A DNA stretch of 24,000 nucleotides from Firmicutes bacterium HGW-Firmicutes-2 (GCA_002841495.1 PGZV01000018.1:25612-49611), one strand, 5' to 3'. Counted from the stretch's first letter, positions 3,757-24,000 are shown. Numbers and translations: made by a program. Notes: generated by a model from the letters alone, not told the origin.

Positions 3757-3766
3757 TATTGAGTAT

Positions 3767-3794
3767 AAGAATAAAAGGCCACATAAATGCGGCC
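3767..3794 (-). terminator. Hairpin plus T-tract overlapping the rpmH stop codon; likely attenuator between rpmH and rnpA
   Basis: The minus strand reads TAG-GCCGCA-TTTA-TGTGGCC-TTTTATTCTT. This is a 7-bp stem (one G-U pair) with a 4-nt loop and a U-rich tail. Differential rpmH/rnpA expression through such terminators is well known. Confidence 0.55.
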
Positions 3795-3928
3795 TATGCT
3801 GACAATTGCTTTCTGCCTTTAGCTCTTCTTCTAGCTAAAACATTTCTTCCGCTCTTATTTTTCATTCTTTTTCTAAAGCCATGTTCTCTACTTCTTTGTC
3901 TCTTTTTTGGCTGATAAGTTCTTTTCAT
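3794..3928 (-). CDS. rpmH: 50S ribosomal protein L34
   Basis: Too short for the ORF track. Hand translation of the minus strand from the ATG at 3928-3926 gives [44 protein letters not shown], followed by a TAG at 3796-3794. A GGAGG RBS lies upstream (CCTCC at about 3939-3943 on the plus strand). Confidence 0.97.
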
Positions 3929-4084
3929 TGATATGCACCTCCTTATATAATTCGTAAAAGCTCTATCAAATTAATGACTTTAATTAATTTGTTAAAAAAA
4001 GTTGCTTCAAAAGCACCATTTCAATTATAGTCACAAAACCCTTAAGAGTCAAGAAAAAAAAGCCTTAATTATTTTTTATTTAGT

Positions 4085-4346
4085 TTATCCACATAAAAAA
4101 GCAAATTAACTTGAATGTTGTGGATAAGTTGTTCAAATCCTTTTATCCACATCTTATAAAATTTATGTGGATAAAACCGTCATTAATTTAAAATATTCCG
4201 TTAATTACTATATTGATTATAGGCCAAAACCGTTTAAATTAAACGCTCCTAATAATTTTGATAACCTCATGGTGTATGATGTGTATAACCTTAATTTTAA
4301 ATAGTTATACACACTTTCCACATTTTTTTCATATCATTCATACACA
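4085..4346. other. oriC upstream DnaA-box cluster, overlapping the dnaA promoter region
   Basis: Four perfect consensus DnaA boxes in alternating orientation: TTATCCACA at 4085-4093 and 4143-4151, TGTGGATAA at 4119-4127 and 4166-4174. Two one-mismatch boxes: TGTGTATAA at 4280-4288 and TTATACACA at 4305-4313. Two weaker boxes: CTTTCCACA at 4314-4322 and TCATACACA at 4338-4346. The cluster lies in the divergent rpmH/dnaA intergenic region where gene orientation switches. Confidence 0.9.
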
Positions 4347-4529
4347 TTTATAACCTTTTTCTATCAAAAACTTCAATTGAAATCCTTCTACTGATAGAGT
4401 ATTATATATACTAGACTTCATCTCTTTGGATAGTGTGCTTGTATTCATATTATAAGAACGCTTCCAAAATTAATTATAAAAAGTTATTAACAGTTATGAG
4501 CCCATACTCATTTAATCCGTATGGATTAC

Positions 4530-4577
4530 TTAGTTTAATCATGTCAATGGAAGCTTCCATTGACATGATTAAACTAA
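4530..4577. repeat. Perfect 48-bp palindrome (24-bp arms, no spacer) in the dnaA leader
   Basis: TTAGTTTAATCATGTCAATGGAAG|CTTCCATTGACATGATTAAACTAA. I checked by hand that the reverse complement of the left half equals the right half. The centre is AAGCTT at 4551-4556. The palindrome ends 78 nt upstream of the dnaA ATG. Confidence 0.95.
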
Positions 4578-4655
4578 TGTCTGCTCGTTATATACTCATA
4601 TATTAAGAGAAAAAGGCCTACTACTACTATACTATAAAAAAAAGGGGGTATTTTA

Positions 4656-6014: not shown

Positions 6015-6066
6015 TAGTTAAAAAGTTAAAACCATATACTTGAGCATTCACATTAGTTTTGACACC

Positions 6067-6277
6067 TGTGTACAACATATCTATAAACTCTTGTATTAGC
6101 TGTTGACGGTTCTATAATAACTATGATGATGTGGATGAAAAAGAATAACTTTTTTATCTGTACACAGGGTTATTAAACTTTAAAAAACCTTATCGTCTAT
6201 GGGCTCAGAACACTTATACACATATTCACATCCCTTACTACTATCATTACTATAAAAAATCATATATTTTATCTTTT
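6067..6277. other. oriC downstream part in the dnaA-dnaN spacer: DnaA boxes, a DnaA-trio-like run and an AT-rich candidate unwinding element
   Basis: Boxes: TGTGTACAA 6067-6075 (2 mismatches), TGTGGATGA 6130-6138 (1 mismatch), TTATACACA 6214-6222 (1 mismatch) and an abutting ATATTCACA 6222-6230 (2 mismatches). These are followed by CCC, then the triplets TTA CTA CTA TCA TTA CTA at 6235-6252, whose complement read 3'->5' is AAT GAT GAT AGT AAT GAT. The AT-rich stretch TAAAAAATCATATATTTTATCTTTT follows at 6253-6277. Confidence 0.65.
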
Positions 6278-13350: not shown

Positions 13351-13379
13351 TTGACGCATATCTTTAATACCATTGTAAT
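13351..13379 (+). promoter_or_regulatory. Candidate sigma-A promoter for the CAP/SLH gene
   Basis: TTGACG (13351-13356), a 17-nt spacer, then TGTAAT (13374-13379). A second candidate extended -10 element, TGATATAAT, lies at 13398-13406. No experimental support. Confidence 0.3.
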
Positions 13380-13452
13380 GAGGTTGACATCATCATTTGA
13401 TATAATGAGATTTGTAGAATTGTATTATTATGAGTTAGGAGATGGCAATATC

Positions 13453-14805
13453 ATGAAGCGAATTATTATGTGGATACTAATATTAATCATAGCTATGGGC
13501 AGTAAGTCATATGCAAGTACTATAGTCATTCAATCAAAAATTGATGCAGATGAGATTGAAAGAACCGTTAATGCCATCAATATCTCAAGGGAGAATATGT
13601 CTTTGAGGCCACTTAGAGTCAATAATACTCTAAAAGAAATGGCTTTGACTCATTCAAAATATATGAATCACAATAAGACTTTATCCAGTATGGAACAAGC
13701 CGGAAAACTTTATTTTAGGGGTCGATATCCATGGGATAGGGCAAATTTCTTTAAATACAATAAAGCCTATGTTTATGAATTCGTTAAAAAAGATTTGAAT
13801 AATTACATGGAAGGTTATAATCAGCTCATTCATGACCCTGTAACGAGAGTTGTATTATTAGATAATCAGTACTTAGACATTGGCATGAATAAAGAAAATA
13901 ATTACTTTACATACTTATTAGGAGGTAGTGTACGAACTGAAGATCAGTTGGTGATTTATCCATATGATGGATTAAAAAATGTTCCATTAAAATGGCAAGG
14001 AGATTCTCATGCATTGCTTTATAAAAATACGACAACAAATGGTAATTTTGGTTTGCCGATTACGGTGACTTACTATGGTAATCCCATTGAAAGAGTAACA
14101 TCTTTAAAAAGTTCCATAGTACGAAAGGACAATGGTAAATCTGTAAGTCATAGAGTTATACTTCCGACGGATCTACATCAATTAAAAAATACCATAACAC
14201 TTTTACCACTTGAAGCTTATGATCAGAATACAACCTATCAAGTTAAAGCGAGCTTTATCTTACGACTGGAAAATGGATCATTAAAGTATATTAATGAAAC
14301 AATTGAATTTACGACAACGAGTAGTGTCGTAAAATCTACGGATAGCAGATATTTGACAAGAGCTCTTTTTGTTGAAAAAGTTTTAAAGAATCAATTTTTA
14401 GGCTTTACATTGCAAGAACCTTTAAAGCTTGAGTTTAAAGATGTGGATATAAACTCAACTGAAAGCATTTATATCTATACCGCAAGTCAAGAAAACTTGA
14501 TTTCCGGTTTTCCGGACCAGAGTTTCAGACCTTTAATAAATATTACAAAAGAGCAAGCGTATATTATACTTATTAAAGCCTATGAAAAGAAATTTCCCAG
14601 GATTTCTTTAAGCGGTAGTGATCAACTTAATCAATACCAAGATCATACCAATATTAGCAGTTGGGCCAGAGAATCCTTATTGAAAGCACAACAACTTGGC
14701 ATAGTGATTCATACGAATAAAAGAATTGAACCACAAGCTTTTATTAAAGAAGATGAATTTGACCAAATAATGGCCTTATTTAGTAAAGTTTTAAAAGATA
14801 AATAG
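13453..14805 (+). CDS. Secreted cell-wall-associated protein with an N-terminal CAP/SCP (YkwD-like) domain, a central beta-rich region and C-terminal SLH repeats
   Basis: The start is placed at the ATG at 13453, 11 nt after an AGGAG RBS. This gives the signal peptide MKRIIMWILILIIAMGSKSYA/S. The CAP-like region includes INISRENMSLRPLRVNNTLKEMALTHSKYM. SLH-like repeats include FKDVDINSTESIYIYTASQENLISGFPDQSFRPLINITKEQAYIIL and a second repeat around ISSWARESLLKAQQLGIV. The track start at 13351 adds a non-homologous extension. Confidence 0.75.
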   Translation: MKRIIMWILILIIAMGSKSYASTIVIQSKIDADEIERTVNAINISRENMSLRPLRVNNTLKEMALTHSKYMNHNKTLSSMEQAGKLYFRGRYPWDRANFFKYNKAYVYEFVKKDLNNYMEGYNQLIHDPVTRVVLLDNQYLDIGMNKENNYFTYLLGGSVRTEDQLVIYPYDGLKNVPLKWQGDSHALLYKNTTTNGNFGLPITVTYYGNPIERVTSLKSSIVRKDNGKSVSHRVILPTDLHQLKNTITLLPLEAYDQNTTYQVKASFILRLENGSLKYINETIEFTTTSSVVKSTDSRYLTRALFVEKVLKNQFLGFTLQEPLKLEFKDVDINSTESIYIYTASQENLISGFPDQSFRPLINITKEQAYIILIKAYEKKFPRISLSGSDQLNQYQDHTNISSWARESLLKAQQLGIVIHTNKRIEPQAFIKEDEFDQIMALFSKVLKDK

Positions 14806-16729: not shown

Positions 16730-17830
16730 ATGTTTAAGAAATTATTAACAATCGTATTCGCTTTAGCAATGATTTTATCATTGGCTCTTGTAACAGGTTG
16801 CGCAAAAAATGAACCAGAGGTTACAACAGATCCGGTGGCTGAAACACCAGAAGAAACACCAGAAGAAGAACCTGCAGAGGTTAGAGAGTTTACAGTAGGG
16901 CTTGTAACTGACGTTGGTGGTATTGATGACAAATCATTCAACCAAGGTACTTGGGAAGGTATCCTTGAATTTGCATCAGCAAAAGGTGCTCAAACAAAAT
17001 ATCTTCAATCGGATTCGGATGCAGACTATATTCCAAATCTATCAAACTTCTCAGACGAAGAGATGGACATTATCATAGCACCAGGCTTTTTATTTGAAGC
17101 TGCTTTAACAGAAGTTGCAACGAATTTCCCAGACCAAAAATATCTAATTATTGATATGGTAATTGGTGATAAACCTAATGTTGCCAGTGCAGTATTTGCT
17201 GAAGAACAAGGATCATTCCTTGTTGGTGTTGCAGCAGCTTTAACAGCACAAGAAGCTGGAAAAGACACAGTAGGTTTTATTGGCGGTATGGACTTTGACC
17301 TTATTCAAAAATTTGAAGCAGGATTTGAAGCTGGTGTTGCAGCTGTTGATCCTAATATGACTGTGTTAGTTGAGTATGCAGGCGATTTCTCAAACGCACA
17401 AATCGGTCAAACTTTAGCAGCTAAAATGTATAATCAAGGTGCATATATTATTTTCCATGCAGCTGGTGGTACAGGAAACGGACTGATTAAAGAAGCTAAA
17501 GACCGTCGTACAAATGGAGAAGATGTTTGGGCGATAGGTGTTGATAAAGATCAATATGAAGATGGTATCTATGAAGGTGATATGTCAGCTGTTTTGACAT
17601 CTATGATGAAACGTGTTGACGTAGCAGCATATGATGTGGCTGAAATGACTTACAATGGTAATTTCCCAGGTGGCGGAATCCTTGTATTTGACTTGACGAA
17701 CCAAGGTGTTGGTATACCAGAAACCAATCCAAACTTAGCGGATACAGTTGTAGAAGAAGTAAAAGTATATGAAGGAAAAGTTGTTGCTGGTGAAATTGAA
17801 GTACCGGTAATACCAAATCGTTTAAAATAG
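16730..17830 (+). CDS. BMP-family (PnrA/Med/NupN-like) ABC transporter substrate-binding lipoprotein, probably nucleoside-binding
   Basis: The ATG at 16730 lies 6 nt after a GGGAGG RBS. The signal peptide ends in the lipobox LVTG|C. A PE-rich linker is followed by the BMP core GLVTDVGGIDDKSFNQGTWEGI...IIAPGF...GFIGGMD. The track start at 16703 reads through the RBS. Confidence 0.92.
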   Translation: MFKKLLTIVFALAMILSLALVTGCAKNEPEVTTDPVAETPEETPEEEPAEVREFTVGLVTDVGGIDDKSFNQGTWEGILEFASAKGAQTKYLQSDSDADYIPNLSNFSDEEMDIIIAPGFLFEAALTEVATNFPDQKYLIIDMVIGDKPNVASAVFAEEQGSFLVGVAAALTAQEAGKDTVGFIGGMDFDLIQKFEAGFEAGVAAVDPNMTVLVEYAGDFSNAQIGQTLAAKMYNQGAYIIFHAAGGTGNGLIKEAKDRRTNGEDVWAIGVDKDQYEDGIYEGDMSAVLTSMMKRVDVAAYDVAEMTYNGNFPGGGILVFDLTNQGVGIPETNPNLADTVVEEVKVYEGKVVAGEIEVPVIPNRLK

Positions 17831-17844
17831 TTTATTTACTTTTT

Positions 17845-17876
17845 AAAGCCAAGACGATTTAGTCTTGGCTTTTTAT
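17845..17876 (+). terminator. Rho-independent terminator directly after the binding-protein gene
   Basis: AAAGCCAAGAC (17845-17855) pairs with GTCTTGGCTTT (17862-17872) across the loop GATTTA. The stem is followed by TTTTAT. Confidence 0.85.
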
Positions 17877-17882
17877 CTTCCA

Positions 17883-17959
17883 TCATCATGCTCTACTGCA
17901 TGATGACCATTGTTACTTAGAAATCTAAGTGGTAATGGTCATCATACCGTTGTAACAAT
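17883..17959 (+). promoter_or_regulatory. Structured leader or inverted-repeat element upstream of the glycyl-radical enzyme gene; class unknown
   Basis: P1 pairs 17883-17891 (TCATCATGC) with 17898-17906 (GCATGATGA). P2 is 21 bp, pairing 17900-17920 with 17925-17945 across the loop AAAT, and includes three G-U pairs. P1 and P2 share nucleotides 17900-17906 and are therefore mutually exclusive. A third option pairs ATTGTTAC (17909-17916) with GTAACAAT (17952-17959). No T-tract follows any of these stems. Confidence 0.3.
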
Positions 17960-17996
17960 CCATGTATATATGAACCTGAAATGAAGAGGTAAAAAT

Positions 17997-19520
17997 ATGA
18001 GATCTGTCCTAAATGATTTGACATCGATAGCTTCTGCTATCAATATGACGTATCAACAAAAGCTTTCCTCAATGGCAAATATTGGAGAAAGACTTGTAGA
18101 TCCAAGAGTGTCATTAGGCTACACTGATGAAGAGATGATATATATTGAAAACGACATGATTTGTGATCTGAATGAAGGCTATTTACCTTACAGACCCAGA
18201 TATATCGTTCCTGATTATGATGTCTTTGTTAGAAATGGCTGTGATTTCCTAGACATAAAGCCACCAACAGACTTGGATACCCTCCTTGACGGACTGTTAA
18301 TACTTTATCGCCATGTACCATCTATTACATCCTTTCCTGTCTACATAGGTAGATTAGATCAACTTATAGACCCTTTCATTCGTGATGAGGCTTCAGATTA
18401 TACTAAAATAAAAAGATTTTTAAATCATATTGATAAAACCATTGTCGATTCTTTTTGTCATGGAAATATTGGTCCATCACAGACCCGTGCCGGTTATTTA
18501 ATATTAAAAGCCGTGGTTGAGCTACAGAACCCGACACCCAACTTAACGTTATTATATGATGCACATTTAACATCAAAAGATTTTGCCCTTGAAGCTGTAA
18601 AAACATGTTTGTTAGCTGCAAAACCATCTTTTAGTAATCAAGTTATGTACCAAAAAGATGTTGGTAATCATGGGATTGTCAGTTGTTATAATGCACTGCC
18701 ATTAGCAGGTGGTGCCTATACACTTTTAAGATTAAGACTAGGAACAATGGCAAAAAAAGCGGATTCTACGAAACAGTTTATTGAAGATATTTTGCCCGAA
18801 GTTGCAATTAAAATGGCAACGATGATGGATAAAAGGGTCAAATATATGGTGGAGCAAAGCAACTTTTTTGAAACGTCCTTTTTGATTAAGGAAGGTTTTA
18901 TCAGTCAGGAAAATTTTACGGCTATGTTTGGTATCGTAGGTTTAGCGGATGCGGTGAATCACCTATTAAAACTTGAAGGAATTTTAGAAACCTTTGGACA
19001 ATCAATAAGAGGCGATGAAATAGGCCATAAAATCTTATCTACATTAGAACAAATTGTGGATCAACATGAGGCACCTTATCTTCAAAGGACCGATGGCCAT
19101 TACCTATTACATGCACAAGTCGGTGCGGACTTAAGTCCAGAAGATAAAGACAATACTCCGGCTCATCGCATCAAAGTAGGTCAAGAGCCTATACTACCCA
19201 TTCATTTAACCCAATCTGCGTCTTTTCATAAATACTTCAAATCCGGAACAGGTGACTTATTTGCATTTGATCAAACCTATTTGGACCACTTAGACGCTCT
19301 TCTTGATATTATTCAAGGTGCTTTTTCTGAGGGCTACCGATACATTACCACCTATTTGCAGAACTCTGATTTAATTAGAGTAACAGGTTATTTGGTGAAA
19401 CGCAGTGATGTTGAACGATTTAATCATAATCAAGTTGTTCTAAGAGATACGGATATATTTGGTAGTGGTACCAATAATAACGCTAATGTTTTTAACAGAC
19501 AAACGAGGACCTACAAGTGA
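17997..19520 (+). CDS. yjjI: YjjI-family (DUF3029) putative glycyl-radical enzyme
   Basis: 507 aa. The glycyl-radical fingerprint RVTGY occupies residues 461-465 (nt 19377-19391; Gly464 at 19386-19388), about 43 aa from the C-terminus. A candidate thiyl-Cys loop, GIVSCYNALP, contains Cys230 at 18684-18686. The size and the pairing with a YjjW-type activase match E. coli YjjI/YjjW, which are about 516 and 287 aa from memory. An AGAGG RBS lies 7 nt upstream. Confidence 0.75.
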   Translation: MRSVLNDLTSIASAINMTYQQKLSSMANIGERLVDPRVSLGYTDEEMIYIENDMICDLNEGYLPYRPRYIVPDYDVFVRNGCDFLDIKPPTDLDTLLDGLLILYRHVPSITSFPVYIGRLDQLIDPFIRDEASDYTKIKRFLNHIDKTIVDSFCHGNIGPSQTRAGYLILKAVVELQNPTPNLTLLYDAHLTSKDFALEAVKTCLLAAKPSFSNQVMYQKDVGNHGIVSCYNALPLAGGAYTLLRLRLGTMAKKADSTKQFIEDILPEVAIKMATMMDKRVKYMVEQSNFFETSFLIKEGFISQENFTAMFGIVGLADAVNHLLKLEGILETFGQSIRGDEIGHKILSTLEQIVDQHEAPYLQRTDGHYLLHAQVGADLSPEDKDNTPAHRIKVGQEPILPIHLTQSASFHKYFKSGTGDLFAFDQTYLDHLDALLDIIQGAFSEGYRYITTYLQNSDLIRVTGYLVKRSDVERFNHNQVVLRDTDIFGSGTNNNANVFNRQTRTYK

Positions 19521-20359
19521 ATCAGAAGATCTTAGTGAATCAGATTATACCCTTTTCAAATGTAGACGGAGAAGGTAACCGGTGTAGTATTTTTGTTCAA
19601 GGCTGTCAGTTAAATTGCCTCTATTGCCATAACAGTGAGACGATTCAGACATGCAGAAATTGTGGTATTTGTATTGAGCATTGCCCCAGTCATGCATTAA
19701 GCTTTCAATCTAATCTCGTTATATATGAAGAAAGTCAATGTAGTCATTGTGATACGTGTATAATGGTATGTCCTTATCAATCAACACCAAAAGCAAAAGC
19801 ATATACTCAAGACGACCTCATGGCCAGGATAGAAATATATCGTCCATATATTAGAGGTGTAACTTTGTCTGGAGGCGAGCCTACACTTTATGCTGATTTT
19901 TTGACGGGGTTGGCACAAAAAATCAAAAAACTCGGGTTAACTGTATATATCGACTCTAACGGATTCTTTGACTTTGAAGCTACTTCACCATTAATTAATA
20001 TTGTTGATGGATTTTTGTTGGATATTAAAGCAGTCGATAACATCGAACATCTTTGTGGTATAAAAAGTCAGCTTCATTTAAAAAATCTAGAAAAGTTACT
20101 TGGAATTAATAAAGTTATAGAAGTTAGGACGGTGCTTTTAAATAAGCATATGGATCAGATGAATACGCTGAATCAGGTGGTAGATCGATTAGAAGGCTAT
20201 CCTCAGGTGCCTTATAGACTTATAAGAGCCCATGTTACAGGACTAAAAAAAGTGCAAGAGGCATATATCGGTGAGGCCATTATGACTGAGGAAGAATTTG
20301 TGGCTTACGGTGACTATTTGAACCAAAAAGGTTTTCATAACTTTAAGTTACAGAGATAA
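19517..20359 (+). CDS. yjjW: YjjW-type glycyl-radical enzyme activating enzyme (radical SAM)
   Basis: The GTG start overlaps the upstream stop (GTGA), which suggests translational coupling. The N-terminus, VDGEGNRCSIFVQGCQLNCLYCHN, carries the activase CX3CX2C motif. Two ferredoxin-like motifs follow: CRNCGICIEHCP and CSHCDTCIMVCP. The SAM-binding motif is LSGGEPTL. Confidence 0.85.
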   Translation: MNQKILVNQIIPFSNVDGEGNRCSIFVQGCQLNCLYCHNSETIQTCRNCGICIEHCPSHALSFQSNLVIYEESQCSHCDTCIMVCPYQSTPKAKAYTQDDLMARIEIYRPYIRGVTLSGGEPTLYADFLTGLAQKIKKLGLTVYIDSNGFFDFEATSPLINIVDGFLLDIKAVDNIEHLCGIKSQLHLKNLEKLLGINKVIEVRTVLLNKHMDQMNTLNQVVDRLEGYPQVPYRLIRAHVTGLKKVQEAYIGEAIMTEEEFVAYGDYLNQKGFHNFKLQR

Positions 20360-20421
20360 TGAAGGTATTATGATGTAGTCAATCTTAATATAGTTATTAA
20401 AAATTAGACAGGAGATGTGTT

Positions 20422-21948
20422 ATGGAATACGTAGTTGAAATGCTGAATATCACTAAAGAATTTCCAGGCATAAAAGCAAATGATGATGTAACCTTACGGG
20501 TTGAAAAAGGAGAAATCCATGCGTTGCTCGGAGAGAATGGTGCAGGTAAATCGACCTTAATGAGTGTATTATTTGGATTATATCAAGCAGAAAAAGGAAC
20601 CATAAGAATTCATGGTAAAGAAGTTGATATCAGCAATCCGAACGTGGCGAACAAGCATGGCATTGGAATGGTGCATCAACATTTTAAGCTTGTTCACAAT
20701 TTCACAGTAACTGAAAACATTATTTTAGGTTTAGAGCCTACTAAATCTTTCGGACGTATTGATATTGATAAAGCTGCTAAAAAAGTTATGGAAATTAGCC
20801 AAAAGTACGGGCTGAAAGTAGATCCTCATTCTAAAATCGAAGATATTACTGTAGGTATGCAACAAAGAGTAGAGATTCTAAAGATGCTATATAGAAACGC
20901 AGAAATCTTAATTTTTGACGAACCCACTGCTGTTTTAACACCTCAAGAAATAAAAGAATTAATGGGTATTATGCGCGAGTTGGTCAAAGAAGGAAAATCT
21001 ATTGTACTCATTACGCATAAGTTGAAAGAAATATCCATGGTAGCAGACCACTGTACGGTACTTAGAAGAGGTCGATATATAGGAACTGTTAAAGTTTCAG
21101 AGACCACAGAAGAAGAAATGGCTGAGATGATGGTAGGACGTGAAGTTAGCTTTGAAGTAGATAAAGTACCTGCTACGCCTTCTGATATTGTGTTGAAAAT
21201 TGAAAATCTTAATATTAAGAATTCAAGAAACCTTATGGCAGTCAAAAATCTTAATCTTGAAGTAAAGGCCGGAGAAATATTATGTGTTGCGGGAATAGAT
21301 GGTAATGGGCAATCAGAATTAATTAAAGGCATTACAGGGCTTACAAAAATTGAATCCGGCAAGATCTTATTTGACGGTCAGGATATTGCTCATGATTCCG
21401 TTAGAAATAGAACACTTAAGGGTATTGGACATATTCCAGAAGACAGACATAAATATGGACTGGTTTTAGATTTCTCATTAGAAGAAAATATGGCGCTTCA
21501 AAGTTATTTTCAAGAACCTTTGTCAAAAAATGGTATTTTACAACCGGAGGCACTTAGAAAACATTCTGACATTTTAATTGAAGAGTTTGATATTAGAAGT
21601 GGGCAAGGTAGTGTTACAAGTGCCAGATCTATGTCCGGAGGTAATCAGCAAAAAGCAATTATCGCCAGAGAAGTGGAACGTTCGCCTAGACTATTAATAG
21701 CAGCTCAACCAACGAGAGGACTGGATGTAGGTGCTATTGAATATATTCATCAACGTTTGGTGAGAGAACGGGATAGTGGGAAAGCTATTTTACTCATGTC
21801 TCTGGAGATGGAAGAAGTATTGAATCTATCCGACCGTATTGCTGTTATATATGAAGGTGAGATAGTCGGCATCGTTGATGCAACAAAAACTAATGAGAAC
21901 GAACTTGGTTTGATGATGGCCGGTTCAAGAAAGGGGAAAGTTGATTAA
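20422..21948 (+). CDS. ABC transporter ATP-binding protein with duplicated ATPase domains (NupO/RnsB-like, BMP-type nucleoside/sugar importer)
   Basis: 508 aa. Walker A motif GENGAGKST, signature-like VGMQQRVEI, Walker B ILIFDEPT. The second domain carries a degenerate P-loop (GIDGNGQSE), LSGGNQQK-like MSGGNQQKA and LLIAAQPTRGLD. An AGGAG RBS lies upstream. Confidence 0.93.
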   Translation: MEYVVEMLNITKEFPGIKANDDVTLRVEKGEIHALLGENGAGKSTLMSVLFGLYQAEKGTIRIHGKEVDISNPNVANKHGIGMVHQHFKLVHNFTVTENIILGLEPTKSFGRIDIDKAAKKVMEISQKYGLKVDPHSKIEDITVGMQQRVEILKMLYRNAEILIFDEPTAVLTPQEIKELMGIMRELVKEGKSIVLITHKLKEISMVADHCTVLRRGRYIGTVKVSETTEEEMAEMMVGREVSFEVDKVPATPSDIVLKIENLNIKNSRNLMAVKNLNLEVKAGEILCVAGIDGNGQSELIKGITGLTKIESGKILFDGQDIAHDSVRNRTLKGIGHIPEDRHKYGLVLDFSLEENMALQSYFQEPLSKNGILQPEALRKHSDILIEEFDIRSGQGSVTSARSMSGGNQQKAIIAREVERSPRLLIAAQPTRGLDVGAIEYIHQRLVRERDSGKAILLMSLEMEEVLNLSDRIAVIYEGEIVGIVDATKTNENELGLMMAGSRKGKVD

Positions 21949-21950
21949 TC

Positions 21951-23051
21951 ATGAAGAAATTTATCGATTTCATCACAAACGAGAAGAATCATAAGTTCGT
22001 CATCCCTGCAATTGCCATTTTTTTGGGTTTCTTTGTAGGATCAATTATCCTAATCCTAACAGGACAAAATCCGATTAAACTATTTACTTCTATCATTAGA
22101 GGCGTTCTTGGGATTGATATGAGCCGTATTGGAAGCGGAAGAAGTGTTTTTAACGCCAGATATGTTGGAGAATATTTTGTATTTGCTATGCCAATAATCT
22201 TAACAGGTCTGTCTGTGGCTTTTGCATTTAGAACAGGTTTGTTTAATATAGGTGCAGAAGGACAACTTTTAGTTGGTTCTTTTGCCTCTGTAGCAGCAGG
22301 GGTGACCCTAGACCTTCCCGGTGTTATATTACTACCGGTGGTTATTCTTTCAGGTACATTAGCTGGTGCTATATGGGGATTTGTACCGGGTATACTTAAA
22401 GCAAAGTTTAATGTGCATGAGGTTGTTGTCACCATCATGATGAATTATACAGCTTTATATTTAACCAATTATTACTTAAAACAGTTGCCAGGTAGTGATA
22501 ATGTAAAATCTATACCACTACCCGCCGGCGCTACCCTGAAAAGTGAGTTTTTGATTGAGATGACCAATAGATCTAGATTGCATTGGGGTTTTATTCTCGT
22601 TATTATTGCCATTTTCATATTTTGGTATATTATTGAAAAAACAACCTTTGGCTATGAGTTAAAAGCAGTTGGATATAACCCTCATGCAGCTAGATATGCA
22701 GGGATGAAAGTAGAGCGTAATGCGGCGTTATCTATGGCTATTGCAGGCGCGTTTTCCGGTCTAGCCGGAACGGTCATAGCTATTGGTACTTTTGGTTATG
22801 GTAGAGTACTAGGAAGTTTTGAGAATTATGGATTTGAAGGTATAGCCGTAGCTCTCGTTGGTGGTAACACAGCTCTTGGCTCTGTGTTTGGCGGGTTGTT
22901 GTTTGGCTCATTGAGCGCCGCGCAACCGGTCATGCAATCCAGTGGCATACCTAGAGATATTGCCATTATTATCAGTTCAACGATTATCTTATTTGTAGCG
23001 ATGCAAAATGGAATTAAAATTATTCTTAAACGTATAAAGGGGGCAAAGTAA
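21951..23051 (+). CDS. ABC transporter permease (NupP/YufP-like)
   Basis: 366-aa polytopic membrane protein. It begins 2 nt after the ATPase stop. The branched-chain/ribose-type permease core includes FNIGAEGQLLVGSF. Confidence 0.9.
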   Translation: MKKFIDFITNEKNHKFVIPAIAIFLGFFVGSIILILTGQNPIKLFTSIIRGVLGIDMSRIGSGRSVFNARYVGEYFVFAMPIILTGLSVAFAFRTGLFNIGAEGQLLVGSFASVAAGVTLDLPGVILLPVVILSGTLAGAIWGFVPGILKAKFNVHEVVVTIMMNYTALYLTNYYLKQLPGSDNVKSIPLPAGATLKSEFLIEMTNRSRLHWGFILVIIAIFIFWYIIEKTTFGYELKAVGYNPHAARYAGMKVERNAALSMAIAGAFSGLAGTVIAIGTFGYGRVLGSFENYGFEGIAVALVGGNTALGSVFGGLLFGSLSAAQPVMQSSGIPRDIAIIISSTIILFVAMQNGIKIILKRIKGAK

Positions 23052-23052
23052 T

Positions 23053-24000
23053 ATGGATATACTTTACTCAATGTTGGCTTTGACGTTAATCTACTCAACT
23101 CCGATTATTATTACAGCGATTGGCGGTATGTTCTCAGAGCGTAGTGGTGTTGCTAATATTGCTCTTGAAGGCATGATGATGATTGGTGGTTTTACAGCAG
23201 CTACAACCATTGTATTTTTGGAAGGAACAACCAGTTTTGCGCCATGGATGTCTTTGATGATTGGTGCGTTGGCCGGAGGTCTCATATCTGTTATTCACGC
23301 TTACTTAAGCATACACTTAAGTAGTGATCAGATTATATCAGGAACAGCTATTAATATTTTGGCAGGTGGCTTGACCATCTATTTGTCTCAGATTATTTTC
23401 GGACAACAAAGAACGGCAACCTTTAGACAAGGCTTTATTAAGAGAACCTATAGTGGTTTAAGTGAGATTCCAATTATTGGAAAAATCTTTTTTACGAATA
23501 TGTATCCAACTGTATTCTTGGCATTTGCATTGGTAATACTAAGTTGGTATATTCTCTATAAAACCCCCTTTGGTCTTAGATTAAGAGCAACAGGTGAGCA
23601 TCCTCATGCCGTAGACAGTATGGGTATCAGTGTTTATAAGATGCGTTATATCGGTGTTATTGTATCCGGATGTCTTGCGGGACTTGGTGGTGGGGTTATG
23701 GTATTGACCCAAGATACGCAATTCACGATTATGAGTATTCATGGTACTGGATTTATTGCTCTTGCAGCATTGATATTTGGTAAGTGGAGGCCCCTTGGTC
23801 TATTAAGTGCAAGTTTGTTCTTTGGCTTTTCACAGATACTAAGTATTTACTCAACCAGTATTGGTTTTTTATCGAAATTACCAATGGAGTATTTTAAAGC
23901 ACTACCATATATATTTACAATTGTGGCGTTGGTCGTATTTAGTAATAAAGCGGTTGGTCCAAAAGCTGTAGGCGAACCTTATGACAAAGGTCAAAGATAA
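23053..24000 (+). CDS. ABC transporter permease (NupQ/YufQ-like)
   Basis: 315-aa polytopic membrane protein. It begins 1 nt after the preceding stop. It contains SERSGVANIALEGMMMIGGF. The TAA stop falls exactly at 23998-24000. Confidence 0.9.
   Translation: MDILYSMLALTLIYSTPIIITAIGGMFSERSGVANIALEGMMMIGGFTAATTIVFLEGTTSFAPWMSLMIGALAGGLISVIHAYLSIHLSSDQIISGTAINILAGGLTIYLSQIIFGQQRTATFRQGFIKRTYSGLSEIPIIGKIFFTNMYPTVFLAFALVILSWYILYKTPFGLRLRATGEHPHAVDSMGISVYKMRYIGVIVSGCLAGLGGGVMVLTQDTQFTIMSIHGTGFIALAALIFGKWRPLGLLSASLFFGFSQILSIYSTSIGFLSKLPMEYFKALPYIFTIVALVVFSNKAVGPKAVGEPYDKGQR

Follow-up and report, generated by a model that had tools for sequence, protein, structure and literature searches.

The glycyl radical enzyme YjjI and its activase are encoded within a conserved cassette for a probable nucleoside importer

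Several bacterial importers that rely on a binding lipoprotein share a simple gene order. In the PnrA (TmpC, Tp0319) system of Treponema pallidum, in NupNOPQ of Bacillus subtilis and in the BmpD system of Borrelia, the operon begins with the gene for the binding protein, followed by those for the ATPase and two permeases, and is not known to be interrupted by enzyme genes. A second pair of genes, yjjI and yjjW, is known from Escherichia coli (b4380/b4379) and encodes a glycyl radical enzyme and its radical-SAM (S-adenosylmethionine) activase; to our knowledge, YjjI is one of the last glycyl radical enzymes of E. coli to lack a substrate assignment. Here we describe a locus in which both groups of genes are combined. 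It was found in a stretch of 24,000 nts from Firmicutes bacterium HGW-Firmicutes-2 (GCA_002841495.1 PGZV01000018.1:25612-49611), hereafter called the window, in which it occupies 16730-24000. Six genes on the (+) strand encode a PnrA/BMP lipoprotein, YjjI, YjjW, a tandem-domain ABC (ATP-binding cassette) ATPase and two permeases. The locus shares with the PnrA, NupNOPQ and BmpD systems the tandem-domain ATPase and the two BPD_transp_2 permeases in the same order, but differs from them in that the glycyl radical enzyme and the activase are interposed after the binding-protein gene.

The positions of the six genes had been proposed from the sequence by a model (the original prediction), and they were borne out by family-model matches at each position. 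The lipoprotein gene (16730-17830; PF02608, 265.6 bits) starts with an ATG at 16730 preceded by the ribosome-binding site AAAGGGAGG, and the signal peptide of its product terminates in the lipobox LVTGC. The yjjI gene (17997-19520; TIGR04040, 703.4 bits for a cut-off of 498.3 over residues 8-504; PF11230, 686.8 bits) overlaps by 4 nts the yjjW gene (19517-20359; TIGR04041, 284.8 bits for a cut-off of 250.2), the product of which carries a CX3CX2C motif at Cys30/34/37 and two CX2CX2CX3C ferredoxin motifs. These are followed by the gene for an ATPase of the NupO/RbsA type with two fused nucleotide-binding domains (20422-21948; two ABC_tran domains) and by the genes for a NupP-like permease 1 (21951-23051) and a NupQ-like permease 2 (23053-24000), which match BPD_transp_2 (PF02653) with 155.8 and 156.7 bits, respectively. 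The set of genes that characterizes a NupNOPQ-type importer, a fused two-domain ATPase and two BPD_transp_2 permeases located 3' of a BMP gene, is thus present in its usual order with yjjI and yjjW interposed.

The lipoprotein is 56% identical to PnrA of T. pallidum over 312 ungapped residues (2FQW, E = 1e-114), and this identity holds across the PnrA structures 2FQW, 2FQX and 2FQY. PnrA was crystallised with purine nucleosides, including inosine and adenosine, and the base-stacking Phe36 and Phe186 and the loop-2 Asp27 are named pocket residues (PMC7093131, the numbering of which is used here). All three align to identical residues in the lipoprotein of the window. On the base side of the pocket, Ser28 is changed to Val and Ser86/Phe87 to Phe/Leu, and the base preference may therefore differ from that of PnrA. 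From this comparison the lipoprotein is likely to bind nucleosides, probably purine nucleosides. One alternative is that the cargo of the importer is riboflavin, possibly a vitamin B6-type compound, or another molecule that is not a nucleoside, and that YjjI acts on such cargo. The altered base-side residues are consistent with this possibility, a riboflavin binder exists in the BMP family (4IIL; PMC3573665), and each of the four transporter proteins has a 'putative B6 ABC transporter' model as its best NCBIfam match, always with a score far under the cut-off. However, the riboflavin binder is matched with an E value of only 1e-9, as against the ungapped 56% identity to PnrA, the lipoprotein keeps both stacking Phe residues as well as Asp27, and the separate links of YjjI to NupC, DeoD and DeoCABD described below involve no BMP proteins. 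We consider a cargo other than a nucleoside quite improbable.

The conservation of the locus was analyzed in a survey of YjjI neighbourhoods that comprised 80 metagenome loci, three genome loci, E. coli and 12 contig look-ups, in which open reading frames were clustered and loci were dereplicated at 95% YjjI identity, leaving 49 loci. The full cassette was present in 11 of these, among them L001-L003, L013, L014, L085, L086/87, L088, L091 and L092. Scanning genome contigs for related loci with a single protein recovered three near-identical relatives only (L001-L003), and the YjjI of the window falls in one 90% cluster with proteins from Petrocella atlantisensis and from Vallitaleaceae metagenome-assembled genomes. 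L013, L085, L086/87, L091 and L092 come from more distant genomes that share a gyrA-SLH-fumarase flank and encode a YjjI 66-74% identical to that of the window, L014 is a short contig with the cassette, and in Alkaliphilus metalliredigens QYMF (L088) the cassette is flanked instead by glycine reductase and sigma-54 genes. Identity to the window in the more distant cassette loci is 64-79% for the Bmp protein, 70-84% for the ATPase, 64-75% for permease 1 and 62-72% for permease 2; in L001 and L003 the ATPase and the two permeases are 96-97%, 96% and 94-95% identical, respectively. The proteins of the cassette are co-conserved with the window except for Bmp, which is missing in two loci of the [Eubacterium] yurii type (L029 and L037), where YjjI, YjjW, the ATPase and the two permeases are encoded in this order with no Bmp gene nearby. 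In the same more distant cassette loci, YjjW diverges much faster than YjjI (30-56% compared to 63-74% identity).

The lipoprotein gene and yjjI meet at a junction that is also conserved. A terminator-like hairpin starts 14 nts past the lipoprotein stop codon, at the place where the original prediction had put a terminator; an 11-pair stem (17845-17872) is followed by the T-run TTTTTAT, the whole element occupying 17845-17877. The core of the stem, CCAAGAC/GTCTTGG, together with the T-run, was found at all 11 Bmp-YjjI junctions (the window, L001-L003, L013, L014, L085, L086, L088 of Alkaliphilus, L091 and L092), with a single mismatch in one of them, and the loop (4-6 nts) and the remaining spacer vary between junctions. 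The stem persists in lineages whose Bmp proteins are merely 64-79% identical, and this motif with its T-run had no other occurrence in the 1.3 Mb of surveyed locus DNA. The conservation of the stem therefore indicates that the interruption after the lipoprotein gene is a selected feature, and this gene is therefore probably at least partly a separate transcript. In the simplest reading, the hairpin would cause partial termination or provide a stabilising 3' end, resulting in a surplus of mRNA for the binding protein, a pattern found in many operons of the ABC type.

The same stem bears on the possibility that yjjI and yjjW landed once in an ABC operon and were carried along by descent and block transfer without selection for linkage. 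A distinctive terminator stem common to the cassette loci is consistent with a single origin, and the gyrA-SLH-fumarase synteny was observed in 7 of the 11 cassette loci checked for their flanks. Such a historical accident is, however, difficult to reconcile with an order of genes kept despite the divergence of YjjI and YjjW (to 64-74% and 36-56% identity, respectively), with the persistence of the block in a different genomic setting in Alkaliphilus, with a yjjW-ATPase gap tightened to 11 nts in several lines, and with NupC and Deo associations that arose separately; we regard it as very improbable. The interrupted operon noted by the original prediction is not an accident of this genome, and the six genes very probably form a selected and co-inherited unit.

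Two further intervals separate the genes of the cassette. The spacer between the terminator stem and yjjI (17873-17996), foreseen as a structured leader of about 120 nts, folds at -33.8 kcal/mol (z = -4.9 versus shuffles) and contains two overlapping hairpins (17884-17945), one of 8 bp at 17884-17905 and one of 21 bp at 17900-17945; as the 3' arm of the former overlaps the 5' arm of the latter, the two are mutually exclusive. Among the close relatives, in which the spacer could be aligned for four loci with 91% identity, the stems are retained, the loops are variable and two G.U pairs are changed to G-C in L001, changes that fit a structure formed by RNA of the plus strand. The spacers of more distant loci do not align, and in the distant cassette loci the equivalent position is taken by a strong hairpin of another kind. 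A known riboswitch or leader in this spacer was rejected, as Rfam searches at the gathering threshold and at E <= 10 returned noise only. The second interval, the 62 nts between yjjW and the ATPase gene (20360-20421), gave no terminator match and no structure beyond chance (z = +0.33), in agreement with the absence of a hairpin or T-tract noted earlier. This gap is reduced to 11-17 nts in L013, L014, L088, L091 and L092, which is the best available argument for co-transcription of yjjI and yjjW with the ABC genes. Comparison between loci thus favours the proposal that the radical enzyme pair is co-transcribed with the ATPase and permeases.

Outside the cassette, nucleoside genes were found beside yjjI and yjjW in other configurations. 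In three loci, yjjI-yjjW is followed by a gene for a NupC-type nucleoside carrier with all three Pfam nucleoside-transporter domains, and DeoD is encoded beside NupC in two of these three groups. The two NupC-DeoD groups consist of 10 and 3 near-identical loci; their YjjI is 62-63% identical to that of the window and their upstream genes are in common with a locus group whose YjjI is recorded as Haemophilus. The third group is Suttonella-like. The Haemophilus HI0521-HI0518-type cluster (yjjI-yjjW-nupC-deoD) thus encodes a YjjI of the same clade as the window, with 62-63% identity, coupled to nucleoside uptake and cleavage; it differs from the window in that uptake relies on the NupC secondary carrier, not on an ABC system, and in that a purine nucleoside phosphorylase gene is included. 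In two loci, E. coli and Edwardsiella, yjjI and yjjW are divergent from the deo operon; the Edwardsiella order is deoDBAC, yjjIW on the opposite strand and then NupC, so that nucleoside genes lie on both sides. In one short contig, a divergent YjjI is encoded directly after a permease 36% identical to permease 2 of the window. Within flanks of +/-10 kb, no homologue of BMP, NupC or DeoD was found other than immediately beside yjjIW. The association with nucleoside genes, which had been proposed from the window and from the E. coli locus, is not sporadic, since BMP-ABC, NupC, DeoD and DeoCABD genes flank yjjIW in separate lineages.

In a rough neighbour-joining tree, built without support values, the cassette-bearing YjjI proteins form several early branches of the main clade and the NupC-linked proteobacterial YjjI proteins stand beside the E. 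yurii type. This placement suggests that the cassette is old and was repeatedly lost, and that the NupC link may have been re-established separately.

Other neighbourhoods were recorded in the course of the survey. A group of 33 near-identical Haemophilus metagenome loci (L059 group) carries an intact YjjI of 513 aa, after which recQ is encoded in the opposite direction; genes for YjjW, NupC and DeoD were not found nearby, though the upstream genes match those of the L026 group, which has the order yjjI-yjjW-nupC-deoD. In the L059 group, either the activase is encoded elsewhere or YjjI is an orphan. Sugar ABC systems located near YjjI in L011, L015, L016 and L017 were considered as nucleoside importers and rejected, as they belong to the Peripla_BP_4 sugar type, the PotD-type spermidine importers or other kinds of system; the sugar ABC ATPases of L011 and L016 are only 31-37% identical to the ATPase of the window. 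In the Clostridia-like L016 (6951-9870), genes for Dak1, Dak2, a TIM paralogue and RpiB lie directly 5' of yjjI, behind the sugar ABC system; this set resembles an erythritol/erythrulose-type, or tetrose/pentulose, pathway and, being a single occurrence, was not used as evidence.

The E. coli locus was analyzed as a member of the deo-linked configuration. The E. coli proteins belong to the same two families as those of the window, both over the curated cut-offs, with the same overlapping gene order, the RVTGY motif and the invariant Cys, and both pairs adjoin nucleoside genes. In contrast, E. coli YjjI is only 38% identical to YjjI of the window, and the E. coli pair is divergent from deoCABD whilst the pair of the window is embedded in an importer operon. 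The adjacency of yjjI and deoC, which the original prediction had stated, is correct: yjjW-yjjI lie on the minus strand and are separated from the divergent deoCABD by 257 bp. It is reinforced by the position of the DeoR operator palindrome TGTTAGAATTCTAACA, for which 0.03 matches are expected by chance and two were found (L004 10665-10680 and 11264-11279 of the K-12 locus), 599 bp apart. One lies inside yjjI, 386 nts from its start, and the other, with one mismatch, lies in the yjjI-deoC spacer; we take them to be the deo operators O1 and O2. As the two operators are placed on both sides of the yjjI start and promoter, a DeoR repression loop should enclose the yjjI promoter, and we infer that E. 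coli yjjI may be controlled by DeoR. Control of yjjI by DeoR or CytR was not found in the literature searched.

YjjI carries the C-terminal motif RVxG[FWY] of glycyl radical enzymes. This motif, here RVTGY (residues 461-465, R461-V-T-G464-Y465), and Cys230 (in VSCYNALP), a candidate for the active-site cysteine, are invariant in alignments of 14 and 30 sequences. Cys230 sits just beyond a below-threshold match to a PFL-like model, which covers residues 164-226 in the YjjI of the window and 166-232 in that of Alkaliphilus. In E. coli, Gly465 of YjjI was labelled by a radical probe in vivo, and the protein was still called uncharacterised in August 2026 (preprint 10.64898/2026.08.13.742689). The family is small and strongly conserved; in a set of 1.8 billion representative proteins, clustering at 50% identity assigned it only about 25 full-length clusters, and it ranges from E. 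coli, Salmonella and Haemophilus to many gut and sediment anaerobes.

A search of the Protein Data Bank (PDB) with a YjjI sequence profile gave no match, and a structural model was used for comparison (AlphaFold, AF2; pLDDT 84.5, pTM 0.88). In a Foldseek search of the PDB with this model, all of the top 15 matches were the class III ribonucleotide reductase (RNR) NrdD (TMq 0.63-0.71). The Foldseek probability was 1.00 for NrdD, PFL, PflD, HypD, GDH and CutC, consistent with a shared ten-stranded barrel fold, and the PFL-type enzymes had lower TM-scores than NrdD, especially relative to their own length. NrdD is the nearest solved fold to the modelled YjjI (TMq 0.65-0.71), both enzymes have a dedicated radical-SAM activase, and the substrate of NrdD contains a ribose ring. 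The two nevertheless differ in many respects: sequence identity is about 12%, E. coli NrdD exceeds YjjI in length by about 200 residues, YjjI lacks the C-terminal cysteine-rich Zn ribbon, the activase is of the two-ferredoxin-motif type and not of the NrdG type, and NrdD acts on nucleoside triphosphates whereas the genomic context of YjjI points to nucleosides.

Several observations, in addition to the altered base side of the lipoprotein pocket, weigh against an action of YjjI on nucleosides through RNR-like chemistry. Firstly, the likeness to NrdD is not detected at the level of sequence. Pfam NRDD (PF13597) gave no match in the YjjI of the window and 11-24 bits in the scanned relatives (21.0-24.3 in P0119 and P0367) for a threshold of 26.2, the hhalign probability of a YjjI-NrdD relationship is 13%, and the NrdD-type C-terminal cysteine cluster is absent, as no Cys follows Cys230 and the last 270 residues are free of Cys. 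YjjI is not an NrdD, because it falls short of the NRDD threshold, has no C-terminal cysteine cluster and is paired with an activase of the two-ferredoxin type; the likeness is at the level of the fold. Secondly, the transcription unit may be divided. The conserved terminator stands between the genes for the binding protein and YjjI, and ahead of the ATPase gene there is a weak promoter-like match (9/12, GTTACA-16-TATGAT, 20347-20374, overlapping the yjjW stop codon); the region shows no excess of such matches over shuffles. Thirdly, about 30 of the 49 dereplicated loci (~60%) have no nucleoside gene nearby, and their neighbours are miscellaneous (endonuclease III, TetR, trigger factor, GGDEF, glutamine synthetase, asparaginase and others). 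The sole recurrent partner among them is a Crp/Fnr-type regulator, present in L011, L012, L082, L083 and L090. Fourthly, in the divergent lineage L096 (7001-11572), with a YjjI at 40% identity, the co-directional order is yjjI-yjjW, a gene for a transporter of the MFS type and a gene for GDPD (glycerophosphodiester phosphodiesterase), a context that may indicate a phosphorylated sugar or polyol as substrate. Finally, in published expression data from E. coli, yjjI is associated with control by FNR and nitrate and not with nucleosides (PMC3228777).

Details of two of these contexts were noted. The Crp/Fnr-type regulator genes (cNMP_binding and HTH_Crp_2 domains) directly adjoin yjjI or yjjW (12331-13167 in L011, 9265-9906 in L083 and 10323-11000 in L090; also L012 and L082). 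The five loci, which belong to one spirochaete and four metagenome contigs, have no nucleoside genes nearby, and the position of the regulator suggests a dedicated control of yjjIW, possibly by redox or oxygen sensing. In L096, a Cof-type HAD phosphatase is encoded divergently upstream.

Part of this evidence would be accommodated if regulation were shared without a shared pathway, that is, if yjjIW and the nucleoside genes were co-expressed as anaerobic or scavenging functions whilst the substrate of YjjI were unrelated (for instance, some keto acid, diol or sugar phosphate). Most YjjI loci are indeed stand-alone yjjI-yjjW pairs, often beside the Crp/Fnr-type regulator, one lineage pairs YjjI with an MFS transporter and a GDPD enzyme, and E. 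coli yjjI groups with FNR- and NarL-controlled genes (PMC3228777). Shared regulation is, however, hard to square with an insertion between the binding-protein and ATPase genes of one importer, with gaps as short as 11 nts, and with recurrence beside two unrelated families of nucleoside transporters and beside DeoD and DeoCABD; in addition, the modelled fold of YjjI is nearest to that of the only glycyl radical enzyme acting on a ribose ring. We regard an unrelated substrate as fairly unlikely.

On balance, we lean slightly towards YjjI acting on an imported nucleoside or on its pentose product. In the mechanism that we propose, the lipoprotein gene would be transcribed in excess, most transcripts ending at the conserved hairpin, and transcripts that read through it or start in the spacer would span yjjI, yjjW and the ATPase and permease genes, so that enzyme, activase and membrane components would be made together. 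Under anoxic conditions, YjjW would use S-adenosylmethionine to generate a radical on Gly464 of YjjI; this radical would move to Cys230, which would abstract a hydrogen from the imported nucleoside or from a pentose or pentose-phosphate product. The chemistry that we favour is an RNR-like attack on the ribose ring in which a hydroxyl would be lost or reduced and the base possibly released afterwards, and the product would enter a Deo-type route through phosphorylase, mutase and aldolase. That the chemistry is RNR-like is a guess drawn from the modelled fold and the genomic context. It is conceivable, if rather doubtful, that YjjI is specifically a reductase-like glycyl radical enzyme for free nucleosides or their pentose or pentose phosphate, and not for triphosphates, working as a radical 2'-dehydratase or reductase whose product loses its base or enters the DeoC aldolase route.

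The cassette of the window lies close to a chromosomal replication origin. On the minus strand, the rest of the window carries mnmE, jag, yidC and rnpA; these are followed by dnaA, dnaN, a small S4-domain gene, recF, gyrB, gyrA, a gene for an SLH/CAP surface protein and a two-subunit fumarase. The origin is inside the window (3757-4655 and 6015-6275), with four perfect and two one-mismatch DnaA boxes upstream of dnaA (4085-4313) and two further boxes in the dnaA-dnaN interval (6130-6222), which places the cassette about 12 kb from oriC. The synteny of the origin region around the cassette is kept in several related genomes. The surface protein (13351-14805) is secreted and combines a CAP (cysteine-rich secretory protein) domain with an SLH anchor to the cell wall, and its position between gyrA and the fumarase genes is also conserved in related genomes.

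Full-text literature searches, with subscription journals outside their coverage, found no assigned function or nucleoside link for YjjI. The only functional proposal found is that of a 2011 paper, in which a role of yjjI in nitrogen metabolism was proposed from FNR-/NarL-type co-expression and a predicted NrdD-like domain in YjjI was noted (PMC3228777). Each gene of the cassette falls in a known family, and the novelty lies in the architecture of the operon and in the convergent nucleoside context. The original prediction of an anaerobic radical reaction on an imported nucleoside, a nucleobase or a pentose-derived product is supported within the reach of sequence analysis. Combined, the results identify a functional linkage that is real and conserved and that offers a useful lead towards the substrate of YjjI. 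The cassette, the links to NupC, DeoD and DeoCABD and the class III RNR-like modelled fold narrow the search from anaerobic metabolites at large to purine nucleosides, deoxynucleosides and their pentose phosphates, and the operon architecture and nucleoside context make the substrate of this orphan radical enzyme a directly testable question. If the link holds, a radical step would be added to anaerobic nucleoside metabolism, which would be of relevance to bacteria of the gut and mouth that live on nucleic acids from the host and its diet. If YjjI does act on free nucleosides, it would represent a new class of glycyl radical reaction and an unrecognised branch of anaerobic nucleoside catabolism or salvage in E. 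coli, Haemophilus and many Clostridia.

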